64,000 bases of DNA from Trichosphaerium sp. ATCC 40318 (taxonomy: Eukaryota > Protista > Tubulinea): contig JALMLS010000438.1 of NCBI GenBank assembly GCA_038496445.1, positions 124,001 through 188,000 on the forward strand, written 5' to 3'. Under the pieces are notes generated by a model, which had not been told where the DNA came from, ran no database searches, and saw nothing but the letters and a program-made list of their open reading frames with translations. How positions within the stretch are numbered: position 1 is the first letter of the stretch; every line of letters starts with the position of its first letter. Below are positions 23,405 through 51,100 of the stretch, piece after piece. Position numbers and translations under genes: made by a program.

Positions 23405-24709
23405 ATGGCCGAAAAATGCTTAAAAACGACAACAACTGACCTGGTAGCACTCCCAGTCGAAGTATTAACTCATATTCTCGAACAAGGAACATTTACTCTC
23501 CGAGCAGCGCAAACATGCCGCTTATTACGAGATATCGTCCACAACCACGTCGGATACGGTAAAATCGATGTTAATACGGAGTCCGAAGCTAAAAGCCTTT
23601 CCGGAAGTCCTCTACTGAAGAATACCGCCCTCTCGCTTTGTAAATTTAATGATGTAAAGAACAGTCATCTGCATTTACTTGCAGGTGTACATACAATTAA
23701 TGTAGCAGGTACAGATGTGTCAGATGAAGGTTTGCTTGCATTAACAGGAGTACACTCTATCAACTTATCTGGTTGTGAATCAATAACAGATGAAGGCATC
23801 AAGGCATTAGCAGGCGTACACGATATCAACTTAGCTTATTGTGGATCAATAACAGATGAAGGCATCAAGGCATTGGCTGGTGTGCATACCATCAACCTTT
23901 ATGAGTGTACATCAATAACAAATGAAGGCATCAAGGCATTGCCAGGTGTACATACCATAAGCCTACGAAATTGCCAATCACTAACAGATGAAGGCCTAAA
24001 GGCGTTGGTGGGTGTTCACAATATAGACCTATCTTATTGTAAATCGATAACAGATGAAGGTATGAAGGTACTGGGAGGCGTACATACCATCAACCTACGC
24101 AATTGCCAATCAATAACAGATGAGGGTTTAAAGTCACTGGCGGGTGTACACAATATTATTCTATCTTATTGTAAGTCAATAACAGATGAGGGTGTCAAGG
24201 CTTTGGCAGGTGTACACACTATTGCTCTATCTAATTGTCAATCAATAACAGATGAAGCTTTAAAGGGATTAGCAGGTGTACACACTATCGAACTGCTTAA
24301 TTGTCAATCAATATCAGATGAAGGTGTCAAGGCGTTGGCAGGTGTACATAATATTAATCTACAGAGTTGTAAAGCGATAACAGATGAAGGTGTCAAGGCT
24401 TTGGCCGGTGTACACACTATTGATCTATCTGTGTGTAAACTTATAACAGATGAAGGTATCAAGGCGTTGGCAGGTGTGCATAGTATCAGCCTACGCAATT
24501 GCCAATCGATAACAGATGAAGCTTTGAAGGCGTTGGCAGGTGTACATACCATCAGCCTACGCAATTGCCAATCAATAACAGATGAGGGTGTCAAGGCACT
24601 AGCTGTTGTACACAAAATTGATTTATTTGGCTGTAATTCAATAACGGATGAAGGCATAAAGGAGTTACAAGCACATACTATAATTTCAAAAAAAAAGTTC
24701 AAAAAATAA
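23405..24709 (+). CDS. Intronless F-box/LRR protein with 15 tandem 21-22-aa LRRs
   Basis: F-box-like LVALPVEVLTHIL...AAQTCRLLR after ATG 23405 (the ORF is open further upstream). Repeats GVHxIxLxxCxSITDEGxKALA. Confidence 0.9.
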   Translation: MAEKCLKTTTTDLVALPVEVLTHILEQGTFTLRAAQTCRLLRDIVHNHVGYGKIDVNTESEAKSLSGSPLLKNTALSLCKFNDVKNSHLHLLAGVHTINVAGTDVSDEGLLALTGVHSINLSGCESITDEGIKALAGVHDINLAYCGSITDEGIKALAGVHTINLYECTSITNEGIKALPGVHTISLRNCQSLTDEGLKALVGVHNIDLSYCKSITDEGMKVLGGVHTINLRNCQSITDEGLKSLAGVHNIILSYCKSITDEGVKALAGVHTIALSNCQSITDEALKGLAGVHTIELLNCQSISDEGVKALAGVHNINLQSCKAITDEGVKALAGVHTIDLSVCKLITDEGIKALAGVHSISLRNCQSITDEALKALAGVHTISLRNCQSITDEGVKALAVVHKIDLFGCNSITDEGIKELQAHTIISKKKFKK

Positions 24710-28900: not shown

Positions 28901-30028
28901 GGAACAACTGAGAAAGCAGCTTACAGTATTGTCAAGGCTGGATTTGGAACTGTAAGTTCTTTGGATGCTGGATACTATGGTCAAGGCATTTATTTTACAG
29001 TATGTACAAAACAGTGTTGCATGTTATTCACTTTGCTAATTCCACTTCAGCGGAGTATACAGTATGCCTGTTCGTATGGTAATGGAGGAACCAAAGAAAA
29101 AACAGTTATTTTGAGTCTTGTCACTCCTGGCAACGTATATCCTGTACATATGCAAACAATACTTTAATCACTATGTATTAATTGATAATTGCAAAAAGGT
29201 AAACCCAAGCGATAAGTTGGAAGGACAGCCAATAAAACCGGGATACCAAAGTCACTACACATTGGTTGATCGCAAAGGTAGACCAGTTACAGAAGATAAA
29301 GTGACCAATGCAGTGTATGATGAGCTTGTTATTGGACAAGGTACACGGAAAAACAAATAATATTTCCCGCTACAACTATTGTTATGTCATTAGATACTCA
29401 AGCTGTTGCTCGCTATGTCCTCAAACTTGCACCAAACAAGCAAAGTAAAAAAAGAATCAAAACAAAACCCAAGAAAGGAGATAAAAAAGGTGCAAACGAA
29501 CAAACTAAAAAAGATCAAGTTTCAGAGCTTGATGATGGTTCTAATGATGATCTTTCCGATGATGAAGATAATTTTATTAGTAACCGGTAATACATTACAA
29601 TTTCTAGTTCTTAAACTTATTGTTGTACTAGAAAATTGTGGGCTGCCCATGATGTGGACGCAACCGGTTACCAACAATCAAGTACTAATGTCAATCTCGA
29701 ACAAGAAGCTCAAGTAGCTAGCCAAGAAGTTGAGAAACCAAAGAAGAGCAATGCAAGTACAAAGGAACTTCAGGAAGCAAAACATGAAGTATACAAACTG
29801 AAGAAGAGTAACGAGAATTTACAGCAAACCAATGCAAAGCAACAACAACATATTGCCAACTTAACACAAGACAATATGAAACTTGCGAAAAGCAACGCCA
29901 ACCTGAAGCAAGACAATTCAACTAAGCAACAAGACATTATCAAGTTATCAAAAACCGTGACTAGCTTACAAGAGACCAACGCCGTGCTACTTGCTAAAAT
30001 AGTTCGCCTTGAAGGCACAAACAAGTAG
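25924..30028 (+). CDS. Ankyrin-array + helical region + PARP catalytic domain + coiled coil (paralog B)
   Basis: MAEPHNEENPKLT. 11 single-repeat phase-1 ankyrin exons at 26126-27683 (nine of 99 nt, one of 102, one degenerate of 108). PARP motifs MVHGT, AGYYGQGIYFT, SIQYA and YDELVIGQDTQAVARYVL. Lys-rich/acidic linker, then C-terminal coiled coil ending LEGTNK*. Confidence 0.92.
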
Positions 30029-30680
30029 CTTTCCATGACCTATAACCAATATTAATTAGCATAAATAAACAATCTTATTTTACTCTTTGTTTATTGTCCT
30101 ATCATACATCAAGAATTGTCGTTTAAAGGATGAGCAGCTTTCCTATACTAAATGAGTTTTTTGTGAGAATAGGCTACAAGCACCACAGCGCCAATATAGA
30201 GTGAACGGTAACGTGACACACCAATGTGATGCCACCAAAGTGCTTATGGGCTGTATTTGCTACAGGGTTAAAACGCGTGTCCAGTGCGACTCGGTGCACC
30301 GGTTGTACTCATACAGTGTTAGGTTGTGTACTGTGGTGAGTCAACTCTAGTTCAGTCACATGCCCGAGTCCGGGTTAAAATCAACACTAAGTCATCTACT
30401 GTACTTACTAAACACCACTGTTTTTATGACTTTGGGACTCATTTTGGTTGATTGTGCATGTTGAAACAGGTTGAATCAGCCTCTGTCAGGGTTAAAAACA
30501 GACCTGAGTGCGATTCACCCTTTATGAGGGATACTCATGTCACCCAAAAAATTTTGAGTCGACTTTGCGTTGAAAATGTTATGACATCAAACAGTATTTT
30601 CTTGATGTAAACAAGGCACAATAAGGTATGCTAAATAATTGTTTATTGTATTAATGAACGTTGGCTGTTCATTACATTAC

Positions 30681-33600
30681 CTACTTGTTTGTGCCTTCAA
30701 GTTGGGCTATTTTGGCAAGTAGGCTAGTGATGGTTTGTGATAAGTTGATATTGTCTTCCTTCAGTTTGAGATTCTCTTGTTGCAAGTTGTTGACGGTTTC
30801 TGTTAAGTTGACACTTTGTTGTTGCTTTGAATTGGTTTGCTGAAAGTTCTCGCTGCTCTTCTTCAGTGTGTCTACTTCATGTTTTGCGTCATTGGTACTT
30901 GATTGTTGGTCATCAGTTGTACCCACGTGGGCACCCCACAATTTACTAGCACAATAATAAACAAGAAAAAGAATTATGAGAAAAGAAATAGTAAAGTCTT
31001 ACCGGTTACTAATAAAATTATCTTCATCATCGGAAAGATCATCATCTGAATCATCATCTTTTCGCTCTGAAACTGTGATTGGTTTAGTTTATTTGAACAA
31101 CATGCCAAGATATTTGTGTACCAGTCTTTTTAGCAGTTTTCTTGGCCTTTTTTGTTTTTTTCTTGTTTTTACGCTCGCTCGGTTTTGGAGCAACTTTGAT
31201 GATATAGCGAGCAACAGCTTGAGTATCTGAACACAGTGTTAGTTTATAGATCATAATTTCGCTTTTGTTTTTTTTCGTGTACCTTGTCCAACAACAAGCT
31301 CATCGTACACTGCACTGGTCACTTCATCTTCTGTGACAGGTCTACCTTTGCGATCAACCAATGTGTAATGACTTTGGTATCCTGGTTTTATTGGCTGTCC
31401 TCTCAGAGTGTCTGTTGGTTTTACCTTTTTGTTATCATTAATACATTCATGGATATAAACTTGTTTATGTACAGGAAATACGTTGCCAGGAGTGACAAGA
31501 CTCAAAATAAGCGTTTTTTCTTTTCTTCCTCCTGTTGTATCATACGATGCAGCATATTTTATACTCCTCTTTATAAAAGCAGTTAATATAACAGTGAGAC
31601 CTTGTGCTTTTACATACTGTGAAGTATATTCCTTGACCATAGTATCCAGCATCCAAAGCACTGACAGTTCCAAATCCAGCCTTTACAATACTATAAGCTG
31701 CTGCTTCACTTGTTCCGTGAACCATCATTATCACTGGTGACTACATAACAGGTATGTGAGTGTAAGATACTATGTGATAAACGTTACCCCTGCTTCCGAA
31801 CTGTCTTGGTTGTCAGTACTTTGATATGGCAGAGTGGGTATTGCGTTGTATTTTGAGTAAACACCCTCTTTGTACTTCTTTTTGATGTCATCTCTCCAAC
31901 CTTGCTTCTTAAACAATGCAGGTAGTTCTCTATATACATGTTAGAATTCATTAAAGACTTTAGCAAACGTACTGATGCCTGTGTTTTACTACAACATTGT
32001 ATCGACCAAAGCTTTCAGTCAAGATTTCATTGTAAACAAGAGTCGCTTCAACAACATCATATTGATCATGGCCATGCATTTTAGACATCTCTTCTTGAAG
32101 GATCTTGAGTTCTCTGACAGATACTTTGTCACTGGAATCAAGAAGATTCAGCGTTCTGTAGTGTGTCGCTTTTGTATTAATACCCCTTTTTTCAAACTAA
32201 GTAAAGAAAGCGACAATATGACTTTGAACGCACGTGTTTTTAGATCTGTCCCAATTATTTGCAAAATATAATCGGCGATTTAGATCCCATGGGTTCTTAC
32301 TTTTTAATCCTTGAGATTCTTTAGTACTTCTTAATTAAGAACATGTAGTGACTTGTACCAACTGTGATTGCATTGGATGCGTCGAGCCCATAGGATGCAT
32401 TGGATAATATCCTTTCTTGTACCCATGTATTACTCCATGCATCATCAGGCATATCAGATACGATACCCAGCATTAATCCTTCATCTCGTTTCCAAAAGCT
32501 CTGTACAAAAGTAATTACAAAGTACAATACCAATTTCGTGGAGATAATACCTGTAAAGATACGCCTTTATCACAGCAATACGAACATATCAGATAACTAA
32601 CACCTTTTTCCATTACCAGGTTAAAGTAAAACCGTGTTGGCTTAAGTTGTGTGAGCGGTAAAAAACTTAACATATTATTTCATACCAAGTCTTGAAGCCA
32701 ATCAAGACTTTGTCCAAAACCACATTCCAAGTTTGATGGACAAGATTTCCACAGTTCGCGGCATTGTTTACCACTTGGACAATATTTCAAGAAAGTTACA
32801 AACGCATCAACAGCACCAGGGTCATCTGCTATCACTCGCTCCAACAACATGGCAAGAAAGTCTTGCCACTTTTTTTCGTCTGGTATTATACCTAAAACCA
32901 AACAACTAAGTAAGAGCTCAAACTTTGAAATTCTAACTCACGAGTACCACTTCTTTGTTTGTCACCAGCATCAAGATCTGCATTGGCTTTGAAGAATAGA
33001 GGTAACATTGTATTGTGCCCTTTTTTTACTGAATAGTAACATTAGCAATTACGTAAAATGTCACATACACTTGCCGGCGATAATCAAAGCTGTGTTTCCA
33101 TCTTTATCGACAGCATCAATATTTGCACCAGCATTAATTAACGCTGACACCAATTTATTGTGTCCTTTTTTTGCTGTATTGTAACATGAGCAAATATATT
33201 GTATATTTTAGTACCTGCAATAATCAAAGCTGTATTTCCACGTTTATCAACAGCCTCAATATTTGCTTTGGCATCAATTAATGTCAATGCAATTTCAGTG
33301 AGTCCCCTTTTTGCTAGTTCTGTGAGCGAGGATATGTTGTATTTCGTATGTCACAATACCTGAATAAATCCAAGCTGTCTTTCCTTCTGTGTCAACAGCC
33401 TCTTTATTTGCACTGGCTTTAATTAGTGTAGATAACACTTCATTATGACCTTCATAAGCTAAATAATCACGTGAGCAAATACATTATGTCTCATATGTAA
33501 AATGAAATTACCTGCGTAGATCAAAGGTGTTTTACCATATGTATCAGCAGCCTCAATATTTGCATTGGCATTGATTAGTGCCGATACAACTTTGTTGTAT

Positions 33601-34817
33601 CCTCTTTTGGCTAAATAGAAACACGTGAGCAAAGACATGTTGTATCTTATAGTTGACAGTACCTGCATAAATCAAAGATGTTCTTCCATATCCATCAATA
33701 GCCTCTATATTTGCAGTGGCATTGACTAGCATCGATACAATTTCGCTATGTCCTTGTTTTGCTAAATAGAACATTAACAAACACATTTTGTATCTTGTTA
33801 TTACCTGCATTCAGCAAAGCTGTTGTTCTGAAGTTGTACGCTAAATAATAATGTAAGCGTGATAGATACGTTGTATTCACATGTCAGTACCTGCATCAAT
33901 TAGCGCTGCCTTTTCATCTTCATCAGCAGCCTCAATATATTTTTTATTGGCATCAATTAACATTGATACGATTTTCTCCTTTCCTTCCGTTGCTAAATAG
34001 TAAGGTAAGTAAACAAAAGTTGATGCCATATAATATGGATATTACCTGCATAAATCAAAGCTGAATCTCCATACTTATCAACAGCATTAATATTTGCTTT
34101 GGCGTTAATCAACATTGATGCGATTTTATTACATCCTTTTCTTGCCACTTCACTGAATCCGTAGAATGCTAAATAACAACATGAGCAAAGACATGTCGTA
34201 TCTTGTATGTCGACTTTCGTGTTTTTAAAACACACATTTTTTGGACAAGAGCATAAAATTTTGAGTTTTCTAGCGCATTCGATCACGTAAACCCTTTGTT
34301 GGAGTAAGAAAAGGTACGCAATAGGACTTTGCCTACCAAATCGCCCCAAAGAAAACTCATAATTTTATGCTTTTGTCCGAACTTTTCTTTTCAGGTAGAA
34401 TTTACTTTGTAATTATCTGTGGGCATAAGGTATTCATCACAAAAGTTCTTTGCCCAAAAAAAAAAGTCCAGTTTTCGAAAGTCAACCTTATTTTCCTTCC
34501 ACGTTGACAATGTAACATTTACCTGCGCTTATCAAAGCTGTATATCCAATCCTATCCGCAACATCAACATTTATATTCGCTTTAATTAATGAAGAAACAA
34601 TATCAGCGTAGCCATTTTGGGCTACAATAAGTTAGATAACTTCTTGCTTAAACAAACTTTTTCGTACCTGCATAAAACCACGCAAATTTTATAAGACCAC
34701 TTGAAACTTTATTGGTCTGTTTAACTAGTAATAAAGGTATTGTTAACAACCATATAATAATAAAGCTCTGTTCTCACCTGCTACTTGTTGGTTTTCTTCA
34801 CTCTGTGGCTCCGTCAT
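30681..34817 (-). CDS. Ankyrin-array + helical region + PARP catalytic domain + coiled coil (paralog C)
   Basis: MTEPQSEENQQVA. 10 ankyrin exons at 32948-34621, including a 123-nt fused exon and a 36-nt truncated one. 14-nt micro-exon 32551-32564. MVHGT, GYYGQGIYFT, SIKYA, YDELVVGQDTQAVARY. Ends LEGTNK*. Convergent with paralog B. Confidence 0.92.
34209..34486. mobile_element. Small inverted-repeat element in an ankyrin intron of paralog C
   Basis: 11-bp terminal IR gtcgactttcg / cgaaagtcaac, and a 31-bp internal IR at 34241-34271 / 34350-34380 (28/31 matches). Host intron is 354 nt versus about 45 nt typical. Confidence 0.6.
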
Positions 34818-35520
34818 GACGTGTTGTTACTCTGAAGTTAGCGTAAAGAAATACTTAAGATTGTGTGACTTGACCTCTCACATTTTTCGTGAACTGCTTT
34901 AGATTTTGTGTTACGGTTTTTGGTTCTATGTACTTTCGCTAATCAATACTGTGTTCCTTGTGTTGAAAGCGCAATACAAATTACGTTGTACAAAAAAACG
35001 TTTCAAAGCAGCTTTTCAATACCACGTGTTGAATAACTCCACGAGGTAAAGTAGTGAGATACTCCGTTCTTGAAGACTTGGCAGTATTTGCAGAAATACG
35101 TCTTGAATGACCTGATAGAAGCACTTCAACCGGAGCAAAGTGACCGTTTCGAGACAATCGTTCCCAAAAAGGGCACTCAATATTGCGCTAGTTTGTAGTT
35201 TTGCTGTTTTCAACTCCGCTATCTCTCCGAGATTTACCCATTCTGTTTCATCACATTTATAGTTAGAAGGATGCGTAAGGGATGTAGTATACAGATATGT
35301 GGAGCTATACGTATTGTGATGCCTAGAAAGCGCAAGTGCGATTCCGAGACTGAAAAAAATGCTTGCGTGTAAATTGTAGCTAAAGTTATAAATAAAACTA
35401 CGTTCCACGTGTTTCGCGAAACGAAGAATTTTTACAACAAATACGTATTTTCAACTTACAAAGCCCATGTGGGTGATGGCGTCAATGAATTGGTACAGCT
35501 TTTCACGATAAAGCATGAAT

Positions 35521-35805
35521 TTAGAGCGTAAACGTCCATGGCATTAAATTAAAAGCGTTTACATTGAATCTACTTCTTTGTTCAAGTTGAGCTATTTTGG
35601 CAAGTAGATCAGTGAAGGTTTTCGATAATTTGATATTGTATTGGTGCAAGTTATTGACGGTTTCTTTTAAGTTGGCAAGTTGTTGTTGCTTTGCATTGGT
35701 TTGCTGTAAACTTTCATTACTTTCCTTTAGTTTGGCCACCTCACTTGCTTCCTGTAATTCTTGTTCTAGATCATCGTAATTGATATCTTTGGTACTTGCT
35801 TGGTC
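35521..35805 (-). pseudogene. Orphan terminal coiled-coil exon of a fourth ANK-PARP paralog
   Basis: QASTKDINYDDLEQELQEASEVAKLKESNESLQQTNAKQQQLANL...LLAKIAQLE is clearly homologous to the last exon of B and C. No PARP or ankyrin exons upstream of it. Confidence 0.75.
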
Positions 35806-36046
35806 TCATCCGCATGGGTTCAGTTTAGTGAAAGTGACAAACAAGTTTTATTGAGTTGATTTTCGCTACAGTTTGCTTTGTCCAACCCTGTTCATCACAA
35901 TATTTTACTGAATCATAGTCATTAAGAAGTCTAGGTTAACCGTCTTTCAGAACCTAAATGGTTAACCAGTTTGTAACCGGAAAAGTAAGACCTCTACACT
36001 GCACCAACTATTTTGTTTTGAAAAAAACTGCCTGAGCTTTCTTAGG

Positions 36047-36766
36047 CTATTGTTTATAAAATGATAACGTTGATATTATAGATGGTCTCAGACTATTGTC
36101 TTTACCATTTACATAATGCCGTTTTGATATCAATTGGCCACTCCTATCCCACTCTTTTGACTCTCCGTTAAGAACGCCATTTGTTAAATAACATTGTTTC
36201 CTGAGTTGTCCGTTTTTATACCAACAATTATGCTCACCTTCTTGTTTACCATTAACATAATAACGTTCCTCCCATAGTTGTCCCGTTTTATGCCAGTGTT
36301 TAAACTCACCTTCTAGTTTGTCATTGACATAAAAACAATGTTTCAGTGGTTGACCATTACCATACCACACCTTGTGTTCTCCTTCAAGCATGCCATTATT
36401 ATAAAAACTATGTTTCCAAAGGCAACCCCAAAGGTACCACTTCTTGTACTCTCCATCAAGTTTTGCGTTAACATAGTTGCAGTTTATAAAGCAGTTCCCA
36501 TTATCATACCATTCTTTGTATTCTCCATCAATACTTCCATGTATCCAACGAGTTGTAGCATGAATCATCGTTTGGTTGTTTTTTCTCTTTTGTTTTACCC
36601 ATTTCCCATGTTTCTTTAGCTCGTAGTCAAACCTTGATGTTGTTGCTGTTCGTTTTGATAGTATTGACCATTTAATAGATGTTTCTATGTCCAAATCGAT
36701 AATATCAAGGTGTATCTCTGTTGGGAGGTTAAATATATGACAAACAGTCACTTTGGAGGAACTCAT
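36047..36766 (-). CDS. Intronless F-box-like + MORN-variant repeat protein
   Basis: IFNLPTEIHLDII F-box-like start, then about six 24-aa repeats GEYKxWYxNGQLxxxCxYVNGKLE. Confidence 0.85.
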   Translation of the reverse strand: MSSSKVTVCHIFNLPTEIHLDIIDLDIETSIKWSILSKRTATTSRFDYELKKHGKWVKQKRKNNQTMIHATTRWIHGSIDGEYKEWYDNGNCFINCNYVNAKLDGEYKKWYLWGCLWKHSFYNNGMLEGEHKVWYGNGQPLKHCFYVNDKLEGEFKHWHKTGQLWEERYYVNGKQEGEHNCWYKNGQLRKQCYLTNGVLNGESKEWDRSGQLISKRHYVNGKDNSLRPSIISTLSFYKQ

Positions 36767-38241
36767 TTGTATTATTTGAAGTGCTTGCGGCAAAAAGCTG
36801 TTTCGCTCACATTGTACTGGTCTTCCACAAGTCAACCTTAAATTATGTACTCCAACATGGATTCAATCAAGTTCCTGGCCACTAGCGGGATTACCATGTA
36901 TTCCGCCTGCATAGTTAGTAACTCCTTGAACTTTTAACATTAAACCTAAAAAGTTTAAAAAACTGTAATGGTCTTTTGATGGTTTTTATTGCGGGTTATC
37001 TTTCTTCGGTATACCAGGTTTTTCTTATTTATCAATGCCAATACAGTGTTTACAACATTTCTTGATACTTTCTAAACATCATTGTAAATATTCTAGAGTT
37101 AACGTTGTCACGTGGTATTATCCAAAAAAAAAATTGTATGAACCAAAATCTTGATTTCGTTTACGTGTGATTTGTCAGTTTATAATTGAACCAATAACAT
37201 AATACACTATGTACTCTTTTGGTGTTTCAGTCTTGGGGACGCATAGGTTCGAATAAGAAGATTCCAGAATTGTAGAAAAGGTCTGACTTTTTAACTAAAT
37301 CAACAATTGTTTACCAAAAAAAACCGTATATTTGTGGGTGCCTGTTTTAACCTCAGGACTAATACCTACAAAAGAATTATCGCTATCCAACGTTTTAACC
37401 GAACAAAAGATGTGCATTTATAGCATGCAAGAAACGAGATTGGATCTGTGGCTTTTTTTTTCGAAGGTCAATGGAAATTCGTCGTAGAGGGAAACACCGA
37501 AAACGGCCTGTATCTCTCGTAAAACAACGTCTAAGCGGTTCTAGATACGATACAGATAAATAAAGCTAGTTTTTGTTAAAAAAAACGGTTGGATTTTTGT
37601 TGCTATTTCTATTTATATTCAATACGCGTGGACGCAATAAAATGTGGTGAATACTCTTTTAAGAGCGTATTAGGTTCAACGATTAGTTATTTGTGCACTT
37701 TCATAAACGAAAAATCGCCCGAAAGCACAGAAACAACAAACCAATAGTCGTGTTGGATGTTTTTTTTTATAAACTCATAACCTCAGCACACAACGGGTAT
37801 GTAGATAGCTACGATAGTTACAACGGTGTTCTCGGTGCCATGAAAACTGAATATTTTCAGGATAGGCCTCTAGTCTTGCAACCGTGTAGCCTAATATAGC
37901 ATAAAAGAAGAAAGCACTTTGAGGCACCAATCCAAAAAAACTAAAATTCTGCCAAAAAAGGCAGGTACAAAGAATTTTTGTGTGGTGTGCCCTAGAAGTC
38001 GCTTCTCTTCCCTGCTGTCAGGTCTTCTTCCACATAACCCCTATGAAAAATGCGTAAAAAACATAGCATAGGCAGTGTTAATCGACCTGCAGCTTGAAAG
38101 ATGTAATGATGTAACTACATCATGCATTGTCGAATACTTCTGTTCTGTGCACCACAGCTGTTTACTGCAGTATGGCGAATAAACGGTTCAAATTTGACGT
38201 GCAGGACCATCAACTTGCAGAGACTACATTCAATGCATTTA

Positions 38242-39445
38242 ACCTCCTTGGGAACAAGACATGTCTTAAGTACCTTGGTGGGGATGAGCACGCTGTACTC
38301 TACACACTTTACCACAACCACATGTTTGGTTGTGTTGTAACCATTCTCTTCTAACATTATAACACCCACAGCAGGTGTAGAAATGTTAATCGAGTTCTGG
38401 ATTACAGGCATAGTACCCTAACAGGTGCATGTCATAAGTTGCCTCAACATCTTTGTGATGTAGGTGGTAAACTTTTTACCCACAAGGAACGGCTCATGTC
38501 CAAGTACTTATGGGATGAAAGACACCCGTGTGTTAAGATTGATGCCCTTAGTAGGCAACGTTTGGAAGCACCAACGCTCTTGTTCTCTTCTAGCATTATA
38601 ACACATCCAAAAAAGGAAAAGTGTAGAAATGCTAATCGAGTTCTGAGCAATGTTACACCAATGTGCAAGTCACATGGTTAACATAATACAAGGTATGTGT
38701 TGAAGTCCTTAATGGGCTACAAAACCATATTAACGTATAACTGACCTTTGTTCTCTTCTAACATTATAACACCCATAGCAGGTGTAGAAATGTTAATCGA
38801 GTTCTAGAGCTAATACACATGGCGCTAACTTGGATCACTTCTTCTAGCATTATAACACTTCTTCAAGGAGGTGTAGAAATACTAATCGGGTGCTGAGCCA
38901 GGTAAGCATTAGGTATGTATTGAAGCCCTCAGTGGGTAACAACTAACTACCTGCGTATGAAAGTTATTATCTCTTCTAGTATTATAACACTTCCCATCAA
39001 GGAGGTGTAGAAATACTAATCGAGATATTGTAACACATCATTACAGTCCTAAGCATGTACAAATATCATATGCCTGCGTGGATGAAAGGAATCAATGATT
39101 CCAACTAAGTAATTCAAGAAACTGTATGACACATCTAGGGAACACCTAAAGGAAAGACAAGTTCTAGTACTTCGGTGGTAACAGATGTGATGCATTGACT
39201 CAATTGACGGAAAGGCACTCAAGCCAAGTACATCAACATGAGTACATGCAAGTGTTACAACTTTAACCTCACCAAGGAAAGGACCAGCCGAGTACTTGAG
39301 AGGAAAGGTATCATACGCTGTGTAACACATCTAGGTAACACCAAAAGGAAAGACAAGTTCTAGTACTTCGGTGGGTAATAGATATGGGCTGGTCTGAATG
39401 GCAATGGCAGATTAAAGGAAAAGGCAGTCAACCCAAGTACGTTTA
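38242..39445 (+). repeat. Seven hairpins carrying a GAA/AGTA (loop-E/S-turn-type) internal loop (motif B)
   Basis: stem-G GAA-short hairpin-AGTA C-stem at about 38242, 38478, 39143, 39204, 39267, 39339 and 39413. Confidence 0.75.
38345..39027 (+). repeat. Five copies of a structured hairpin motif (motif A)
   Basis: TCTCTTCTARYATTATAACAC-variable-GTGTAGAAATRYTAATCGRG at 38345-38394, 38584-38640, 38752-38801, 38838-38890 and 38968-39027. Confidence 0.9.
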
Positions 39446-39654
39446 GGTAGTGGTACACATTCTAACTCATCTAGCAAAACAAGACGGAAATGGTTGGCAT
39501 TACAAAAGGTATGTAGTGAAGCCCTTAGTGGAGCAAAATCACATGGATGTAGACTAACCTTTATTTTATACTGTAGTAGCGCACTCAAAGGATAGGAGGA
39601 TCACACTTGGACAAAGGTACAGCCCATACTGCTTACTGACGTTTAGGTCTAGTT

Positions 39655-40092
39655 CAAGATGTAGGAGTTCAATGAGGAGGTGCAAGTTCATTTGCTAACT
39701 TAGCTGCGCTATACACACTACTGATGAAGGTGTGTATAGCCAAATGATCCAGGGATATGCAGTTTTAGGTAACTCATTCTTATGAGCAGATGTGGAGTCA
39801 GGTGCTTTTAATATTGGCGCTAACTATGAGCATGATGGTAGGTTGTGGTGCCATTGGTGCTAACTTAGGTACTGGCACACAAGATGTCGGAGTTCAATGA
39901 GGAGGTGCAAGTTCATTTGCTAACTTAACTGCGCTATACACACTACTGATGAAGGTGTGTATAGCTAATTGATCCAGGGATATGCAGTTTTAGGTAACTC
40001 ATTCTTATGAGCAGATGTAGATGTCAGGTGGTTCTAATATTGGCGCTAACTATAAACATGAGGGTAAGTTGTGGTGCCATTGGTGGTAACTT
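39655..40092. repeat. Tandem duplication, about 212-bp units, period 225
   Basis: 39655-39866 is highly similar to 39880-40092. Each unit contains the hairpin gctatacac...gtgtatagc. Confidence 0.9.
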
Positions 40093-41163
40093 TTGTGTAG
40101 GTTGGCTAAAAGATGTTGGCAAAGGGATACAGATTTGGGTGCAAGTGGATGCTTAGCATAAGTACGTGTTTATTGGATGTTTAAAAGTGTATTTACTAAC
40201 TGTTCTACCTTTGCAACTTGGGGCTTACAATAGGTAGGTACAAGGAGGGGTATAGATTCATAGGATGGTGCGTTAGGCAGGATTCACGGGATGGATGGGG
40301 CAATTGGGATTGTTACACCTACTGCTCATTATACGACTGTCGTGGTATCTGGACTGTAGTTTGTTCTTCATCATCTTAGCACATGCCAGCTGGGGCAGTT
40401 TTCACTAGCTAACCAAGTGGTTGACACGTGTTGAGTGACAAGGAACAGATTACAGGGCAGTAGGTGTAACTCACAATAGGTTAGGTACAATGGGATGTGG
40501 ATGCACAGGATGGGTGCAGTAGATGTAATCATTAGGTAGGATTCACAGATTGGCTTGGGTGATAAGGGATGATGGCTTGCAGAACGGTACATATGTAGTG
40601 TCCTTTAATAACTTACTTTCTATTCTATACGTAGGGTTTCGCTGGTTCACACAAGGGGGTTGTTGTAATTAATAAAATCCTTTTTCTTCTATTTAATTTA
40701 ACATTTCACCGTTTTCTTTTTCTCTTGCATTTAGCATGCTCACTGCAGGGGTAGGCAATGTATAGCAACTTTAAAAACAACTTACTTCAGCCAATTGAAG
40801 TTTTGTTGTTGTACATTTCTTTGTTTGAGTGCATTGATAAACTGTTTGGAAGTTTATGATTATATTCACGTTTAGTTATGTATTCTGGATGTACTGCATT
40901 TTCTGTGCTTTTGTGGAACACTAATTCCTATTGCTTTGACTGTCAGTACTTTTCTTCAGTAACACAAACGAAGTTTCAATACAACTTGTGCGCTATTAAG
41001 TATAGCTCATGTTCAAAATAGTAATTGAAGTGTAGGTGACCGTTCAAACGTACTAGCACTTTGTATACAGATTCTTTAAAACGCATAGTAGGTCTCAGTC
41101 CCTATTAGTTGGCTCTTAACCTATCAACAATCCTAAGACAATAGTACCAAGACAGTAAGCACT

Positions 41164-41846
41164 TTATTTTATACTTTTATGTTTCATGTTGTCTTTTTCA
41201 TCCTCATAAATAACCATACGTATAGTCAACGATATACGTCTATCCCCAAGAACACCTCCTTTTTTGATAGAATGTTGCCAAATATACCTCGACTCACCTG
41301 TAAGAATAAACATGGAATTCTGACGAATAAGTGTTTTCCTTTCACGTGTATCTTTTCTCTTTTTCCAAGTCATCTCCATGTCCGATAACAAGCTTACACC
41401 AAATATAGCCTCATTATAAAGCTTCTTGTTATCTGTATGAGAACCAAGAGAACTATCTTTGTTGTACTCGTTAATGAACACTTCAGTGTACTTATCTTGT
41501 CCAAGATTGTTTTCAGCGACATTACATTTTGGAAGATGTTTTTCGCAAAATCGAAAAATATGTGAAACCAAGTCTTTAGTGAACTTTGGAAGTGGTTTAA
41601 CCTGGCTTGAAGCGTTTAATTTCCATGATTTATCGTGTACAGGTCCATAGAATTGAACTCTACGCGTTTTAGACCTATTTGGTTCCCAGTTTTGTAAATC
41701 AATGTTATTTACTAAATTTTGTGCTTCTTGAGCGTTTAGAAAGTCATTGATGATGTATAAACCTTCAGCGGCCGTTAAGTGGACGTAAAATTTACGCGAA
41801 AGGTACCTTTGATTGTTTGGGACTCTTCGTAGGCGATTTCAGCCAT
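41164..41846 (-). CDS. AlkB-family 2OG-Fe(II) dioxygenase
   Basis: MAEIAYEESQTIK|GLYIINDFL..RRVQFYG..INEY...GSHTD...GVSLLS...WQHSI...RRISLTIR, giving HxD...H and RxSxTxR. One intron. Confidence 0.9.
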
Positions 41847-42028
41847 GATCGACTAGTTTTATTTATGTTGAAGCTTAAAGGACGCATTCAGAGAAAACTT
41901 GAAGTGTAATTTTTGATCAAGAGAACTTTATCACTCATCACAAGTGGTATTCGCATCTTACTAAGACAGACATAGTATACAGAGGTTGTACTCAACATAT
42001 AACTGCGCTGTAGTTTTTTATAGACAAA

Positions 42029-45000
42029 ATGGCGCACAGCCGTACGGAAAGCGTACAAAACAACCTTCTTAAGTGTAAATAGGCAAACGACAACGTTCAG
42101 ACGCTACGCCCTACGAACCAGATGCAAAACGACGTAAAGTCGTAAAAGGAGAAGTTTATCTGCGTTTCGAAGTAGTTGATACGCCTCTAAACGACTCAGA
42201 TGAAGTACGCTATTTAAACTCAATTCACAAGCGTTAAACTTCCGTTAGATATCAGCTACAGAGCTACACGACTTTTTAGAATCAAAATATGACGAAAAGG
42301 TTTACTATCCACTGAACATTATTCCGACTCAGTAAGTTCTACCGCCATTTTGTTTGTGGGTTATCTACGAGATTCCCACAGCAAACATTATCACAGTTAT
42401 AACTTTTTTGAAGAAGCGGGTCGCCCATTGCGTTTGCTATGATGACGAATCCACATCGTATGCGTGCTGAACGTCCTACAAGGTTCAAACATTACAGGGT
42501 ATGTATAAGTATGTCTGTTGATGACACGTGTACATAGAAACCTTGAAGTGACGAAATTTTTTTTGGCGCTTTTTTCTTGTTGGCAACTTCTAAGCTCTAT
42601 GTTAGGTATCATTTGGGAAACCAAGGAACTCGCGTAAAAGAGATGAAGAGGTTGCAAAAACTCACCTTATACTGCTTACAGAGTGTTGCCAAGTTGGCAC
42701 TTTCGTAGACGGTCAAACATTTTCAAAAGCTGGTTGCTTATGGACCCCTGATAATGATACACCATCAGGTATCTTACTAATCATAAAAGTAAAAAAATCA
42801 TGTGAAGATCACGTGAAACAAACCATGCTAAAATGAAGGATACCTAACTTGGATTTTCTTAGATTCGTACCTCTCACGTCACAGTCGTATGTCTCTTTCT
42901 AGATTGTTCACATATGACTTCAATCATGTAACATTCCAACCTTTGATGCTTGAAGAAGAAGAACATATGTTCCCAATAGAAACAGCTATGCGTATTACAG
43001 TACCTTTTGCAGATATGACAAACTGGATTGTTTCAAAAGCGCCAACGACTAACTTGGCGTATGATATTTTCTTTACAGCAACTTGCCCTCCACAGATTTA
43101 CAGAAAACGTAAGCCTCTTACAATGCAACACGTATCAACCCACGTGTATTCTTTTCTTCTAAAATGAACAGGGAAAACTAACGTGTCACGTGTTTTATAG
43201 GTGATATGGGTGGAAGAGTACGTTCAGAGCATGATGCATTTGTTAGAGTTGGAGCTGCTTTTTTAAAAGAACAAGAAATATGTGGTTTTACTGATGAGAA
43301 GACATTGTATCTTAGAGTCAGGCCAAGACTTATCAATGCAAGAGGTAATATTGAGCCTTCTGATGATGATTCTATAAAGGAAGCTTTTCTACAGAAGCTT
43401 GAGAGTATTTTAAAGACAGACGATATTCCTAACTTTCCTGTTACTCATGTTGATAAGCAAAGTTCTCACTCAGAACATCTTGCTAATCTACCATTCCCTC
43501 TTCAGTTTGCTATATATCAATTGTCTACATGGGGTAATGTAAATCTAAGAACAGTTGATGATGACTTTTATAACCTCATATAGTACGCACAACATAAATG
43601 TTATGAAGCTAGCTATCTACTGCTTTTTTTTTGGAACAAAAAATTATCGACAGAATTCTGCTTTTTGGTTACTCCGTATTTCTCCACAAACATAATACAC
43701 AGCACGTTTGATTGTTTTTTTTCAACGTAGTACAAATGTGTTTTATTTTTAGTTTCATTGTTGTTCGGTGTACTGATTTGTTTGTTTAGTAATGCAGGTC
43801 AAGAATCTGTTATTTCATGTTTAAATAAAATGTGGAAACCTGATGGTGTCAGGATAAATTATCCTGTATCTATGCTGAAACAATTCCTTCTTAAACATGA
43901 ACACGTCGATTATATAGTACCAAATCATTGTGTTATGACTCACAGGTACATGTTTCTGTTCGATAAAGAACATTGCAAAAGTTGACTACTGACTTAACAT
44001 CAGGGCGATTATCACTCCCTTGAAGACTTATATTGTCGGACCTGTTCCTGAGATATCTAATAGAGTTGTGAGGCATTTTGAAAAGTATCAGGACCGCTTT
44101 TTAAGAGTATCATTAGCTGATGGTACAGAAGCTTTGTTCAACTTTTTTACGGTTTATATCCGCTTTCTCGTTTGTTTATTAATGGTTCTAGATAATATGA
44201 ATAAGTTAAATACATACGAACTAGATAAAAGTGATTTAGAAGACCGATTCAGAGATGTCCTGAAAAACGGTAAGACACCAACAATGTTGACTTAAACACA
44301 TGCTTTTTTTCTGAAACGTTTTGTACTTTTTTCGTCTTGATTGATTGTCTACTGAGTTGTACTTATATTCAACATAGGCATACATATATGTGGTAGACAT
44401 TATGTATTTCTTTGCTTTTCTCAATCGCAGCTTAAAGGTAAGCAATGACGAAATAGTACATGGTGTTATTTTCTTGTACAAACAAGTTTAAACACTTTCT
44501 TTCAGAGCATTCTTTCTGGATGTTTTCAGAAACAGATGATCTTAGTGTCACGCTCATTCGTGGTTGGATGGGTGATTTTACTGCTAATAAAACTATTGGC
44601 AAATACGCGGCAAGGTGAGCACGTGAAACTTAAAAACTTTGATATTTTTCATTTGTGTCATTGCTCACAAGCTTTTTAAAGAATGGGTCAATGCTTTACA
44701 AGTACTAAAGCAACAATACAACTTGATGAAACAGAAATTTGTTGTATACCAGATCTTAAAGGACCTCCTCCTGATAACGAGTTTGTATTTAGTGATGGAG
44801 TTGGTACGAAAACTAGATGAGAACTCCATGTAGCTTTGTATTTATATTACCTTACCCTTACTTGATTATAGGTAAAATAAGCGAAGATATGGCATCTAGA
44901 GTAGCTAATGAGCTAGGCATTGATATCATACCATCTGCGTTTCAGGTACGAGCTCAAGAATGCACTTTCAAATAGAACAAAGAAAGATTTCATCATTCCT

Positions 45001-47886
45001 TACTGTTTGATATTAGATTCGTCTTGGTGGATTAAAAGGTGTTTTAGCAGTTGATCCAACTCTAAAGACTCATAGTGTTTGCTATAGACCATCTATGAGT
45101 AAGTTTGCGAGCCCTCATCTAGTCTTTGAAGTATGCACTTATAGCCGTCCAATGGCTGCGTATTTAAATAGACAAATCATTATTCTCTTGGCATGTAGGG
45201 GCATAAGACCAGAGGTACATGATTTGACTTTCATTAAATATGTAAAAACCACGTGATTTTTTTTTCCGACATGTTTGGTTGACGAGTTTTTTTAAGGTGT
45301 TCTTGAAACTCCAAGAATCTATTGTACAGGACGCTGATAGCGCAACATTAGACAAAGAATCAGCAATAAGAATTATGCAACGTGTAGGAGCTAATTATAT
45401 GCTTTGTCGTCGTGCTCTTGAAGCAGGGTTTGATGTAACAGAACCACTATTAAACAGCATGTTGCGGCTTCTAAAATGTCGTGTTTTAAAGAACATAAAA
45501 GAACGTGCAAGGCACGTGATAAATCATAAATGTTCTCACTCTAAGCGAATTCCTAGAATTCCTGTAGGTGATACTGCAAGACTTCTCATTGGTGTTGTTG
45601 ATGAGACAGGGACTCTTGAGTATGGTCAAGTGTATATACGAGTCACAACCGATGTACATGACCCAGAAGGCGATTTGTTCTCTGTGATTGGACCAGTTAT
45701 TGTAGCTAAGAACCCTTGCTTGCACGCAGGTAAACATTACTAATCTTTCTATTTCATATTGATGATTTGAGTACAGGTGATGTACGCCGGTTGATTGCAG
45801 TTGGAGATGTGCCGGAGTTATCTCATTTGACGAATGTAGTTGTATTCCCAGCAAAAGGTACAGTGGACTTAATAGTTCAACTTCTTTTCCTGCCTGATTT
45901 GAACTGATCATCTCGCTTGATGACTAACATTTTGTATCACAGGCCCAAGACCTCATCCAGATGAGTGTAGTGGATCTGATTTAGATGGAGACCAATATTT
46001 TATTACATGGGATAATGCGCTTATACCAGAGTTAGTTTTTTGTTATTTGAGTTCTACAATGCTGTTTTTCTAATATTTTGTTTTAGTTCTCCTAATCATG
46101 AACCAATGGACTATACTCCTCCTCCTACAGCTTACGTAGATAACGTAACTATGGAGTCAATTGTAGAATACTTCATCTCTTCTATGACAAATGATGCGCT
46201 TGGGATAATCGCTAACGCACATGTGCGTTTTTTTTTCTTTTCATTTGAGTAAACTTTTCTTCTGAAACAAACTGTTATTTTCTTCGTGCCTTATTGAAAC
46301 ATCAACGGTTTTTTATCGTATTACATACCCAGCATATCTGAGTATAAAATTTCTATGTAATACATGATTTTGAGACACTTTGTATCGCTGTAGCTGCTTT
46401 TTAAGGGATTTTTTTTTTGCTTATGTTGTCTTAGCTTGCCACAGCAGATGAGAAAGGTGCTGACTCTCCAGAATGTCTAATGCTCGCACAACTTCATTCA
46501 GAAGCTGTGGATTATCCAAAAACAGGAGTGAAAGCAGAAATGCCCCAGGAGTTAAAACCACAAAGAAAACCGTATGTTTTGGCAAACTTCTTTGTTTTAA
46601 TATCAAACTTAACCTGAAGTTAAGGCATTACATGCGTTGTGGAAGAAATCAGACACCCTATGATTCAAAGAGCGTATTAGGGAAACTATATGATGCTATA
46701 CATATACCTATGCATTCCACATTTCCTGTAGGATATAGCAATGTACAAAAGGACCCAGACTTCAATTTTGGTGCGTTGAGTTTTTGTCTTCGGCCAGGAT
46801 TACACACTGTAAAATCAGTTTGTTCACCAAAAAATTTATAAACATGTTTATTGAGAAAATACGCTACGAAAAAACAGATGGACCTTGTTAAGGCTTAAAA
46901 CCTAACTCGGAATTTTACCAAACACAAATTTGTAAAAAAAACCAACTGAAATTTGAAAGTTTTTTCTGATGTGGTTAACTCTTGTTTTTGTGGTCAAAGG
47001 TTTATCACTTGTTCCAACATTTTTGTTGTTAATTTTGGGTTCCGTTAATTAACTTTGTAGATAAAACAAATGTTAGCATTGAGGAGTTTGGACAGGTGAT
47101 GGAAATGTGTTCTAAGTATAACAAGGGAATGAAGCGAATATTGTATCATTATGGTATTGAGAGGGAAGTTGAAGTTATGCTTGGAGATATTATTAAAGCA
47201 CATAAACTATTTGATGTAAAGAAGCATAATTACTACAACGTCAGACAGAACTCTGGAAGGGTACAAAAAAAAATACAAAAAAAATTCCGAGTGAAAAAAA
47301 AGGCCACTTCAGGCAAACTTGTTTTTAGTACTCCAGCATAGCTTGCTTGATATCAAATTAGATTTATTTAGCTCCTTCCTATTGTTGAAACAATGGGTTA
47401 CAAATTCTTTGAATTTGCAAGTCACGTGAATCCATACAAAGACAAGAACATTTTACCAAAAAAAAACTTAAGGGCTTTTATTTACTTCGTACTTAGGCCT
47501 ACTTCACCCTCAAAGATGTTGCTGTTAAACAGTTTTGGAATCCTATAATACCTCATTTAAGCTCATATTCACCTGAAAATGAAGATATCTTAGCGCACAT
47601 GGTAAGCAAACACCAAATGAAAAAAACCATTGCGAAAACAAATCAGTTTTTTGTTAATGTTGTTTGCATTTAGATATCAACAAGAGCAAAGATGTGTTAT
47701 CATGTGGCTTATGCCGAAAGTGATCAAACAAGAAGAAAAGAGAAAAAACGTCTGTTAAGTTTTCCTTGGGTTGCTTGTGAAGGTGTTTTACTTCTTATCA
47801 AAAAAAAAGCAAAACCGTCAGAGTATATTAATTTAGGACTTGCTTTCATAGAACACATGCATCAACCTGCTCTCTGGAACAGGTAG
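42029..47886 (+). CDS. Eukaryotic (RNAi-type) RNA-dependent RNA polymerase
   Basis: SNRVVRHF, DRFLRV, FSQSQLK, WMGDF, KYAARMGQCF, FSDGVGKIS, PSAFQIRLGGLKGVL, LNRQII, VAKNPCLHAGD and catalytic CSGSDLDGD (about 45966-45992). Many introns; the exact 3' end is uncertain. Confidence 0.95.
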
Positions 47887-48186
47887 AACCAATGCTTGTG
47901 GACATGTTTTGGCGTTATGACTATGCTGTATACAGTAGCGTTCCTCTACGGAGTCAAATTGTACAAAAAAATACATGAATAAAGTAAACTGTAATACAAA
48001 GCTATGTTGCTAAATCTTAAGGAACTGCCTCGTTTCAAGACTTTATTTTTGAGTGATGCTTTAATCTCCAGTTTTTGTGAGTACCTTAGAAGGTGATTTC
48101 AGACCTAGACATTGTAAACAATAAATAGAAACACAGTAAACTCAAGTTCTTTGAACACAAAAGAACTTGTGTATTTCATCAGAAAC

Positions 48187-51100
48187 ATGGCTACAGTAAC
48201 CGAGCAGAACCGCTTATATATGGTAAAACTTCAATATCGAACGAATTGCTTATTTAGCGAACCAGCCTTCAAAAAACGGTTCGTTTAGTTTCAGCTAAAG
48301 CACTTAAGTCGTTCTGATTGCGCTCGCTTAAAATTTCGGCGCTATTTCCTCAAGACATCATAAACAATCCGTTTTATGGCTGCCATTGAAAAGCCTACAT
48401 TGAGGACGACAGAAAGGTATGCTTTTTGGGCATTTCAACGTTAATTTAATTATCCACTTTAGCGACGACTTTCTAAAGAGCTCCCGAGTAATACAGCACG
48501 CAAGCTTGCACAAAATAACGCCTTTTGTTGGCAATTCACTCTACGGATCTACCAAAGAGCGACACGACGAGAAATCGTTCCCAAAATATTGGAATAAGTA
48601 TATTGGGGCTAATGGAAGGTTATTAAAAAAAGTACAACAAAAAAACTGTCAATAATGCTTTCTGACGTCTCTATTTAAGGTTATAGTAGCGGGTAACGAA
48701 ATACAAGTGAAGGCAAGCGAAACGGTTTTTTAAACGTCACCAACAAGCTAAATTATAACTAAGGGCGTAGAATGGCCCTTAGGAGGCGTAGTGCTACGTG
48801 GGCAGCACTTCATACCCAACCCAAAGTACGCAACTGAAAACCTGGTTGTAGTATTTAGTGGTTCTCATGGGAGTTGCGAATATCATTGCTCTACTTTCGC
48901 TTTGTGGTTTGCAAAACGAGGATGTCATGTATGGGTTTCAGTGAACTTGGGAAAAAGACGTTTTGGAAAAAAATTTTAACTTATCTTTTCTGTAGTGTTT
49001 GTGTATGGATTATCGAAGTTTTGGTGCTAGTACGGCGTCAACATATGTTCCTAGTACAAAACATAAATATGGAGTAAATGGTACTGATGATGAGTGGAGT
49101 TCGAAAGAAACGAAATTTCTTTCTATTTTTTTTATACTTTTCCTATTACTGAAAGAAAAAAATGTCTGACTGAGTTTCTTTCTTCAGGTCTTGCAAAGTT
49201 GCATGGCTCTCATTTATTCCAAGACGCTGTTGAATTTTATAATTGTGCCAAAGATGGTATCAAAGATCACAATGGACTTGTACGTTCAAGAAACCAACCG
49301 AAACGGATTAAAGTCTGACTTTTTTTCCTCTTAGAATTTTGAAACAAGGAATATAATTTTATATGGATTCTCCATGGGTGGTCCAATGGCTGCTTATGTT
49401 AGTCTTAAAGTTGCACTAGCTGGTGGTAGAATACGTGGATTAATACTTGATAGGTATGTGATTAAAATCATTTATTCTATATGCTCTTTCTCATCTTTTT
49501 TGTTGTTCCACAGAGCGATGGTTAATGTTAAACAAGGAGCTAAAAATAATGGTACAAACGTTCACGGCATGTATTCTTGTACTGACAAGAGATGTAGGCT
49601 TTCAATCATGGGCGGGTAGCATAGCTGCATTCACACATGACAACCTAGAAATTTCCAAGACATTGAAACAATTAAGTGATGTTTATGCTGACATACCTTT
49701 AATTATTACTGCTGGTGGTGAAGGATTCGATGAACATGCTGAAAGTGATCAAAAGCTAGGTATGTGTGATGTATAAGACGCTCAACATATTGATCTAACC
49801 TCAAGGCCTTACTCAATGCCATGTTGTATCCTAATTTAATTCCAATTGAAAAATCTTTTCTCTGGCTTTTGCCACAAAATTATCACGTGTTTTTGTCCTT
49901 TGCGATGATTTATTTATTTACTATTTTTCAAAGGTGCTGAAGCTCAGAATGTTGGATTAAATAACGTTAAAAAGGCATCTGTTGCTAATGCCGAACATGA
50001 AGATCACTACAAGATTTTATTAGAAATAGAAAATTTTTTAGATGTGTTACTTGTCAATTCTTTAGTTCGATTTTCTTCAGATATTCAAGACTCAGACGAT
50101 GAAGACACATCAGAAGAAAGATCTATAAGGTAAAACTTACAAAGAGTAGCCGGTGGGAGCCTTCTACAAACAGCTAACATGTAGCAATTTATTCTTATTT
50201 TTTTCTGCTTTAAACCTTTTTTGCTGTTTCTCTTTTCTTCTTTCTCTTTGTTCCGATTATCAGTGTTCCTTTATTTTGAAGCAGTGTATTCGTTGTCATT
50301 AATTTGTTTATTTAGGGAAAAAGAACAAGAGAAAAATGAAATAGTGAAACAAAACGCAGCAAATATTTTTAAAGAATTGAATGACGCTCTAAGAGCTAAG
50401 CGAAAAGCTGGACCAGAAAAAGCAGAGCCTTCTAGTGGTCCTAATGAAGAAAAACGACAAAAAGAATTATACAGATCAAGTTTCTCTTGTAGAGGAGGGT
50501 GGGATGCTTTGGAGGCAACATTAACTAGGTAAGCGAGTATAAAAAATAACAATTTGATTTTTTTTGGAAGATACAGTTTTTTCGGTTTTATTACTTGCAC
50601 GTGATTGCTTCACTTAATTATTATGTTCTCAACCACATTTTAATAATATTTTGAGTACCTGATGCTATACTCTGTTATTTGACAGTATCAGGAAACTGCA
50701 ACAAAACAACAAGAAAATTTTTGGAAAAATTACAAGTCAAAACAAATTTTTTGTTATACTCGTTTTTTGTTTCTTTACTTATCATTATTGCTAGTAATCC
50801 ACCTCCAAAATCACCTAGAATCATCCACACACCACGGGAAACATCTCGTAGAGAAACTATAGCTAACTCAACAGCGATACCAATAATCACAACCAGTTCT
50901 CCAAAGACACAAGAAGTTGAATTTAAAGCTTTGAATTCAAGTAATTCAATACCAGCACTATTAAAGATTTCGGCATCTTTAAAAAATGGGACTATACTAT
51001 TATGGATAGATAACCTATTTAATAAAGAAAAAAAAGCAACATTGGATCTGATGAAGAGTATTCCAAACATAACGGTACATTACTTTTTTTTTTTGGTAAC

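Follow-up and report, generated by a model that had tools for sequence, protein, structure and literature searches.

What does a eukaryotic genome keep in a 2.9-kb stretch that is rich in hairpins and offers no credible open reading frame (ORF)? The question is raised by positions 37750-40680 on the + strand of a 64-kb window of Trichosphaerium sp. ATCC 40318 DNA (contig JALMLS010000438.1; the window is the whole stretch analysed here), an intron-rich eukaryotic sequence of 36% GC with ankyrin, LRR/F-box and MORN genes, the gene content of which gives an amoeba-like impression. We delimit a putative transcription unit at 37740-40700 (+), its strand deduced from motif asymmetry and its ends unmapped, with a run of nine T near its start (37760-37768) and, as an earlier sequence-only reading had noted, a terminal AATAAA at 40671-40676, which a U-rich tract follows. 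The locus is apparently a noncoding, + strand, modular one under selection on RNA structure. The sequence-only reading had taken it for an undescribed, spliced, structured long noncoding RNA (lncRNA); its noncoding, + strand, repeat-modular and structure-selected character and its place outside Rfam stand, and part of it is found in a sequencing run that contains complementary DNA (cDNA), whereas splicing was not supported.

We read the locus as noncoding, with a small reserve for coding through micro-exons. The longest unspliced ATG ORFs encode 72 amino acids (aa) on the + strand and 98 aa on the - strand, values of 3-base periodicity lie between 0.3 and 2.3 for five pieces of the locus vs 4.0, 4.1 and 38 for three exons, and no Pfam match was found in three stop-to-stop frames of the locus, which bears out the earlier claim that it holds no credible ORF. 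The spacers inside the repeated modules described below do not keep to multiples of three and so break the frame (for module A, the lengths are 9, 16, 9, 12 and 14).

The strongest sign that the structure of the + strand RNA is what is kept comes from the turnover of stems in module B. This module consists of seven + strand hairpins with the layout G-GAA, one variable pair, a stem of 2-4 base pairs (bp), a loop and then AGUA-C. They are B1 (38245-38280, with a 4-bp inner stem), B2 (38473-38522), B3 (39143-39178), B4 (39198-39243), B5 (39260-39310, in which AGUAC could alternatively close on a downstream GGAA around GAGA), B6 (39339-39375) and B7 (39407-39446), the weakest copy, which has a competing long-range alternative fold. 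AGUA/GAA is the canonical sarcin-ricin sequence in the available text of PMC1865062, and the AGUA and GAA strands of this loop-E motif lie between two helices in six of the seven copies. A descriptor requiring at least two inner and at least four outer pairs is passed by six copies, B1 falling below the outer-stem threshold; it gave six matches on the + strand of the locus, none on the - strand and three elsewhere in the window, both strands taken together. In 2000 shuffles it found no match in 1911, one in 88 and two in a single case, and never more. Double-sided changes occur at inner+1, inner+2, inner+3 and outer-1, the pairs switching among A-U, G-C and C-G, and none of the nine motif letters varies, in part owing to how the copies were picked.

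Module A comprises five hairpins of 60-75 nucleotides (nt) with fixed internal loops, together with a degenerate sixth copy, A0. Each is built from a 3-bp stem, a UUC/AUC loop, a 7-bp stem, an AUA/AGA loop, a 4-8-bp stem and a free apical loop, and the folding energy amounts to 15-26 kcal/mol per ~75 nt. All copies lie on the + strand. A1 (38336-38407) shows the fixed UUC/AUC and AUA/AGA loops flanking the 7-bp stem; A2 (38576-38649) contains in its 5' arm the AG of a candidate intron at 38528-38593; in A3 (38745-38812) the corresponding AG has become AA and is compensated in the 3' arm, likewise in A1; A4 (38828-38903) has a single mismatch in the 7-bp stem; and A5 (38963-39035) has a second compensated pair and carries in its 5' arm the AG of a candidate intron at 38913-38979. 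A0 (38014-38094) retains a CUUCU/AAUCG loop at 38019-38089 on another, 6-bp outer stem, and the same scan returned one further match in the window, on the - strand at 50116. Pairing is kept in 73 of 75 cells (97.3%) vs 32-44% in slid controls. The arms, 20-21 nt long, are 85-100% identical among copies, the 40-nt upstream flanks show background identity (0.38-0.50 vs 0.47 for random 40-mers), and the apical loops vary. Two of the 15 pairs have changed on both sides (G-C/A-U and C-G/U-A). As A1 and A3 lack the AG but keep the pair, it is the stem, and not a splice site, that seems to be under selection. The shuffle control was mixed, nine of 500 shuffles matching the paired share together with the covariation score.

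The same strand is dense in splice-like signals. Donor and acceptor matrices were trained on 21 introns, picked by eye, from a neighbouring RNA-dependent RNA polymerase (RdRP) gene and a triosephosphate-isomerase-like gene. Between 37701 and 40700, 22 donor-like sites score at least 7 on the + strand and none on the - strand; block shuffles gave 7.0±2.5, and the densest fixed 3-kb bin outside the locus, in the RdRP gene and thus in a training gene, has 13. CUAAC occurs 14 times on the + strand vs 3.5 in shuffles, UAGGUA 10 times vs 1.7 and GGAUG 14 times vs 2.9, and there are 19 YAGGTR words. None of 500 block shuffles reached 22 donors or equalled any of these word counts, even when the second copy of a tandem duplication described below was left out. 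The CUAAC words are dispersed, mostly in the form GCUAAC, and intermixed with donor words and structured modules.

The intron-like segments of the sequence-only reading were recovered as eight GT..AG candidates of 48-86 nt, the size of host introns, predicted on the + strand from splice signals: I1 (37797-37860), 37965-38021, 38528-38593, 38693-38778, 38913-38979, I5 (39509-39576), I7 (40162-40233) and I8 (40587-40634). Module D, a GUAUGU donor followed by a 4-5-bp hairpin, has three clear + strand copies (38693-38725, 38913 and 39509) and a degenerate one at 38528. One predicted helix, 39407-39429 with 39551-39574, pairs the branch word of I5 with upstream sequence and leaves its adenosines unpaired, as with U2 small nuclear RNA, but the fold around it is not significant (z score -0.4). 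A long-range stem at 39361-39645 covering the same branch point was dropped (z score -0.4).

Hairpin C, of 12 bp, occurs once in each copy (39708-39740 and 39933-39965, +) of a tandem duplication at 39655-40092 (+) with a period of 225-226 nt and 93.9% identity; the two are too alike for covariation to show. With A (5+1 copies), B (7), C (2) and D (3-4), the claim of at least four classes of repeated module proved correct. A further hairpin, E (40312-40470, +), was absent from that account. It measures 159 nt, comprises two 15-bp helices plus a side stem and folds at -72 kcal/mol over 171 nt (z -6.4, 0 of 200 shuffles), the opposite strand giving -58 (z -5.6).

Evidence on transcription comes from run X1, which represents one study and holds 12% of the sampled words; it is only guessed to be RNA, is strandless and may contain DNA, and its contigs drop rare forms. 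Comparison of its contigs with 31000-50900 revealed a 56-nt CT..AC skip at 31226-31283, as well as a contig that, past 31618, goes on with what looks like the following exon of a paralog and lacks the window's intron, and X1 therefore contains spliced cDNA. Within the locus, 36 records cover 39486-40589 (strand not given), 15 of them at 99% identity or above, 17 at 95-99%, three at 90-95% and one below 90%. No GT..AG joint in the locus is listed among them. A contig at 39486-39633 bridges the acceptor of I5, another at 40111-40340 bridges both ends of I7, and contigs also read through the donor-like sites at 40064 and 40345. The word "spliced" in the earlier description is thus unconfirmed by a run that misses rare forms and may hold DNA. 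One contig joins 39490 and 40555 on opposite strands, possibly an artefact of assembly or amplification; the donor-flanking stretches at these two places resemble each other.

The X1 variants differ by substitutions and 1-3-nt indels, and one form is without part of 40273-40496. Among ten listed substitutions in E, five fall on unpaired positions, three keep a pair and two break one, both next to indels (rough p 0.03 under an assumed break rate). We read the variants as paralogs, although they might also be alleles or stem from a second species in the sample; both transcription and the existence of paralogs are partly supported by X1. Coverage is absent over 37400-39415, which contains A and B1-B6, and over the neighbouring AlkB and RdRP genes, where a contig gap is no evidence either way. 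Two other runs, X2 and X3, gave no matching record.

The locus appears to lie outside every family tested, and its repeats are noncanonical internal loops, unlike those of the known repeat-modular lncRNAs. An Rfam scan, which the sequence-only reading, unable to assign the locus to a known RNA family, had proposed, agreed with it: the Rfam 15 families gave no match at gathering threshold in 64 kb, the best E values in 37000-41200 being 1.8 and 2.7, the latter a noise-level match to mir-576. A search for box C/D small nucleolar RNAs (snoRNAs), defined by a RUGAUGA box C that a CUGA box D follows at 45-140 nt, plus a terminal stem, found no perfect box C; box D stands at the right distance in four of 17 one-mismatch candidates, two of the four being one duplication. 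Together with the lack of an Rfam match, this weakens the snoRNA precursor that had been proposed as one option. Judged by eye, the 3x3 loops of A are too small for an H/ACA pocket, and no tRNA genes were found. A hammerhead ribozyme or retrozyme was rejected, the core of CUGANGA, stem II and GAAA occurring on neither strand and no Rfam match being obtained. No convincing template of about 1.5 telomere repeats, as in a telomerase RNA, was found, a single 8-9-nt CCCTAA-type run at 38415 being about what we estimate for chance.

Distant relatives were sought by pattern in viral, metagenome and prokaryote genomes. The strict A pattern had no match there. The loose A pattern matched one viral and 58 metagenome loci, once in each; none of the 59 has both outer stems, and they reach at most 27 bits with covariance model R1, which convincingly found only the five training copies of A (79-82 bits) and missed A0. 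A word common to these loci is the reverse complement of what we take to be an extended -10 promoter box and may explain them. The loose pattern repeatedly matches one context, unrelated to the locus, in many metagenome contigs, the reverse strand of which reads like such a box. With a B-like pattern, 31 viral loci matched, once each; 27 of the 31 pass the descriptor once, largely by construction, and none twice. BLAST of the locus against the 90 loci fetched returned nothing at E <0.01. Narrow word searches of the literature found no description of such an RNA, and the accessible portion of a Dictyostelium lncRNA survey (PMC5295588) does not mention structured repeats.

What, then, could such an RNA do? 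We tentatively favour a low-copy, largely unspliced lncRNA family that acts as a multivalent protein scaffold, to which we give somewhat less than an even chance. Many copies with fixed internal loops at fixed spacing look more like sites for protein binding or tertiary contacts than like guides, and the scaffold is therefore favoured. The locus would be an RNA polymerase II (Pol II) lncRNA gene in a small paralog family, built via internal duplication of intron-plus-hairpin units; its repeated unit of donor, D hairpin, branch word, pyrimidine tract and A hairpin suggests growth by duplicating an intron and its flank. One mostly unspliced transcript would span the whole 2.9 kb. Its six or seven loop-E motifs, the B loops presumably in bulged-G geometry, and its five or six CUUCU/AAUCG loops would serve as binding sites for one or two proteins, each in many copies. 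TFIIIA-type C2H2 zinc fingers, which read loop E of 5S rRNA, would be a first guess for the partner of B. The dense splice words may attract U1 and branch-point factors yet be spliced inefficiently, and could thereby retain the transcript in the nucleus, comparable to the binding of SF1 by the UACUAAC repeats of Gomafu. Function, binding, localisation and transcript span are here inferred from the sequence. A bolder version, to which we give a rather small chance, is a eukaryotic counterpart of the "ornate" giant RNAs: a 2.9-kb transcript in which duplicated introns would have turned into arrays of tertiary-type loops (loop-E, CUUCU/AAUCG) and decoy splice signals. The resulting multivalent particle would titrate a loop-E-reading protein and components of the spliceosome.

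Several points weigh against the scaffold. All covariation comes from 5-7 paralogous copies at one locus; B3 and B6 (93% identical over 57 nt) represent one recent duplication, and the thresholds of the B descriptor were chosen after the copies were known. The covarying stems and fixed internal loops that had been reported earlier are present in A and B, but the covariation is thin, the two double-sided pairs of A being equalled in 253 of 500 shuffles. Folding is patchy: large parts of 39300-39700 and 40000-40300 do not surpass shuffled sequence in this respect, and several 200-nt windows in the 3' half of the locus have z >0. The unspliced X1 contigs could be genomic or pre-mRNA, since X1 may hold DNA and is strandless. 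At I8, a paralog-like X1 contig diverges right after GT: this more diverged form keeps the 35 nt before I8 and continues into an intron of other sequence that has a CTAAC of its own. Such a pattern, in which the exon is kept and the intron is turned over with its signals retained, speaks for genuine splicing of one intron or more. The viral, metagenome and prokaryote collections yielded no orthologue from any other species, an absence that is weak because these collections are poor in microbial eukaryotes. Lastly, the Gomafu repeat is dispensable for nuclear localisation, according to the available part of PMC3116199.

Instead of holding proteins, the RNA might be a polycistronic small-RNA precursor, whose E and A hairpins a Drosha- or Dicer-type enzyme would cut into guides like microRNAs (miRNAs) or small interfering RNAs, an explanation with a rather low probability in our estimate. 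E is a long, nearly perfect duplex with the strongly negative z score given above, A combines conserved arms of guide length with variable apical loops, and both show the pairing of at least 60% and the low energy that serve as pri-miRNA hairpin criteria in the available text of PMC6161686. The Dictyostelium pri-miRNAs described there start behind T runs, and the locus resembles them in its T9 run and in a long hairpin on a Pol II-type transcript; it differs in being much longer, in its many hairpin classes and in its AATAAA, pri-mir-1176 being without a canonical signal in the same partial source. The RdRP gene lies 1.7 kb off. However, the two fixed 3x3 loops of A and an upper stem varying between 4 and 8 bp mean that cut sites would shift, E is intact in long X1 contigs, and mir-576 at noise level is the nearest to an Rfam miRNA match. 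Moreover, we know of no loop-E hairpin that is a Dicer substrate, which also speaks against this precursor.

Unlikely as well is an intron-tiled host or splicing switch, in which short introns lying back to back would be excised one after another or only under certain conditions. This would either abolish the A hairpins that straddle acceptors or set free structured RNAs from the introns. It would account for the highest donor density in the window and the YAGGTR words, for eight segments sized like host introns, for the pyrimidine tracts ending in AG in the 5' arms of A2, A4 and A5, and for the retention of the I8 signals in the paralog-like contig. Opposed to it are the lack of any spliced joint in the part covered by X1, the pair kept in A1 and A3 without AG, and the absence of a perfect box C. 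Structural masking of acceptors was also unsupported, their pairing being 0.55 vs 0.56 at RdRP acceptors (p 0.48) in a test in which four of nine locus ends were misplaced by one base, and the splicing-regulated sensor that had been proposed earlier gains nothing from it.

A relic or domesticated mobile or viral RNA element, such as an untranslated region or an element like an internal ribosome entry site (IRES) or a short interspersed element, might have had its hairpins selected in the element and then been duplicated along with the surrounding gene arrays; we hold this to be distinctly unlikely. In its favour, loop-E motifs occur in viral IRESs, and paralog-like variants are present in X1. 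Loop-E motifs are found in viroids too, in the available part of PMC6633198, and the closest Atlas clusters of the adjoining AlkB are bacterial, phage and giant-virus ones (score 0.95-0.96). Against such an origin, neither a second copy of the locus nor translated similarity to it was found elsewhere in the 64 kb, and the sole flanking inverted repeat, of 12 nt, was judged to be chance, with no target duplication found by eye. A satellite or tandem array was rejected, with no row at score 30 and only the one two-copy 225-nt duplication. The viral searches gave single matches at 0, 1 and 31 loci for the three patterns and no array, and the splice words are of host type and distributed on the + strand only.

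Spliced-ORF searches bear on the last explanation. With the trained matrices, the + strand of the locus gave 91 aa (strict) or 209 aa (relaxed) and the - strand 98 or 151 aa; the RdRP training region reached 366-369 aa, and 170-428 aa were obtained for the gene region at 30.6-33.6 kb. A real ankyrin region yielded only 78-135 aa, so that the search can miss genes. An untrained permissive search produced 263 aa (+) and 431 aa (-) vs 154-348 aa in 10 shuffles, the + value inside this range and the - value above all ten; the 431-aa model is without backing from splice signals, one donor on the - strand scoring at least 6. A micro-exon protein gene with ~20 short introns, its hairpins incidental or splicing aids, can point to a donor density exceeding that of real genes, to the 209-aa and 431-aa models and to the under-called ankyrin region, but it is very improbable in view of the spacers, the missing codon periodicity, the reduction of the - strand to 98-151 aa by trained signals, the + strand value typical of shuffles and the X1 variants, which at 10 of the 12 places listed have indels of 1-2 nt, some possibly intronic.

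The locus lies between a MORN gene (36047-36862, -) and an AlkB-type 2OG-Fe(II) oxygenase gene (41164-41846, -), with which it converges; that it does so, and that AlkB in turn lies beside the RdRP gene, had been stated correctly. The RdRP gene encodes a cellular enzyme (PF05183) at 42439-47800 (+, end approximate) and has many introns; it and the AlkB-type gene stand head to head with ~600 nt between them. A protein search with AlkB gave a single distant match, and one with an RdRP exon gave four matches at 31-42%, including one animal and two plants. No tie between the locus and either gene was found apart from adjacency. Elsewhere in the window, two paralogous gene copies converge, at 27700-30030 (+) and 30680-33000 (-); their exons are alike and both have coiled-coil tails. 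One exon of the pair has no Pfam match, and run X1 contains many spliced paralogs of the second. Ankyrin-repeat genes with about one repeat per exon and an Ank_4 match lie at 195-4400 (-), 33500-34400 (-) and 25990-26240 (+). Two long single-frame LRR genes occupy 23168-24706 (+) and 53989-55389 (-), the second with an F-box and LRR_6 repeats. The gene at 17900-19160 (-), with six introns, we take from its motifs to be the triosephosphate-isomerase-like one.

To our knowledge, eukaryotic lncRNAs seldom show clean evidence of selected structure. The Xist A-repeat, roX, NORAD and bacterial CsrB are repeat-modular RNAs with short linear or hairpin-loop motifs; as in these, function would arise from the repetition of a short element along a single transcript, whereas the repeats of the present locus are noncanonical internal loops of at least two classes. 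The sarcin-ricin hairpin of rRNA has its strands in the reverse order of module B. As far as the available text of PMC1865062 goes, B shares with sarcin-ricin/loop-E motifs the exact AGUA and GAA strands, the closing G-C pair and the flanking helices, but GAA stands 5' of AGUA, no GNRA cap is present and the motifs are arrayed. Gomafu/MIAT, in the accessible portion of PMC3116199, is likewise noncoding, contains branch-point words in repeated form and has been proposed to hold a splicing factor; the CUAAC words of the present locus differ in being dispersed, mostly GCUAAC, and mixed with donors and structured modules. GOLLD, ROOL and OLE, in the available part of PMC12286853, are also large noncoding RNAs rich in helices and tertiary-type loops; the present locus, by contrast, is eukaryotic, with splice signals, internal repeats and no Rfam match.

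A single locus that repeats defined noncanonical loops while their stems turn over makes each module accessible to probing and pull-down on its own. If the RNA were instead processed into small RNAs, the locus would represent an unusual cluster of multiple hairpins adjoining an RdRP gene. If it is a scaffold, it would extend the repeat-modular lncRNAs to a little-studied eukaryote and would offer a route by which duplicated introns turn into functional RNA modules; and if the ornate reading were true, Trichosphaerium would possess a kind of RNA that has so far been described mainly in bacteria.

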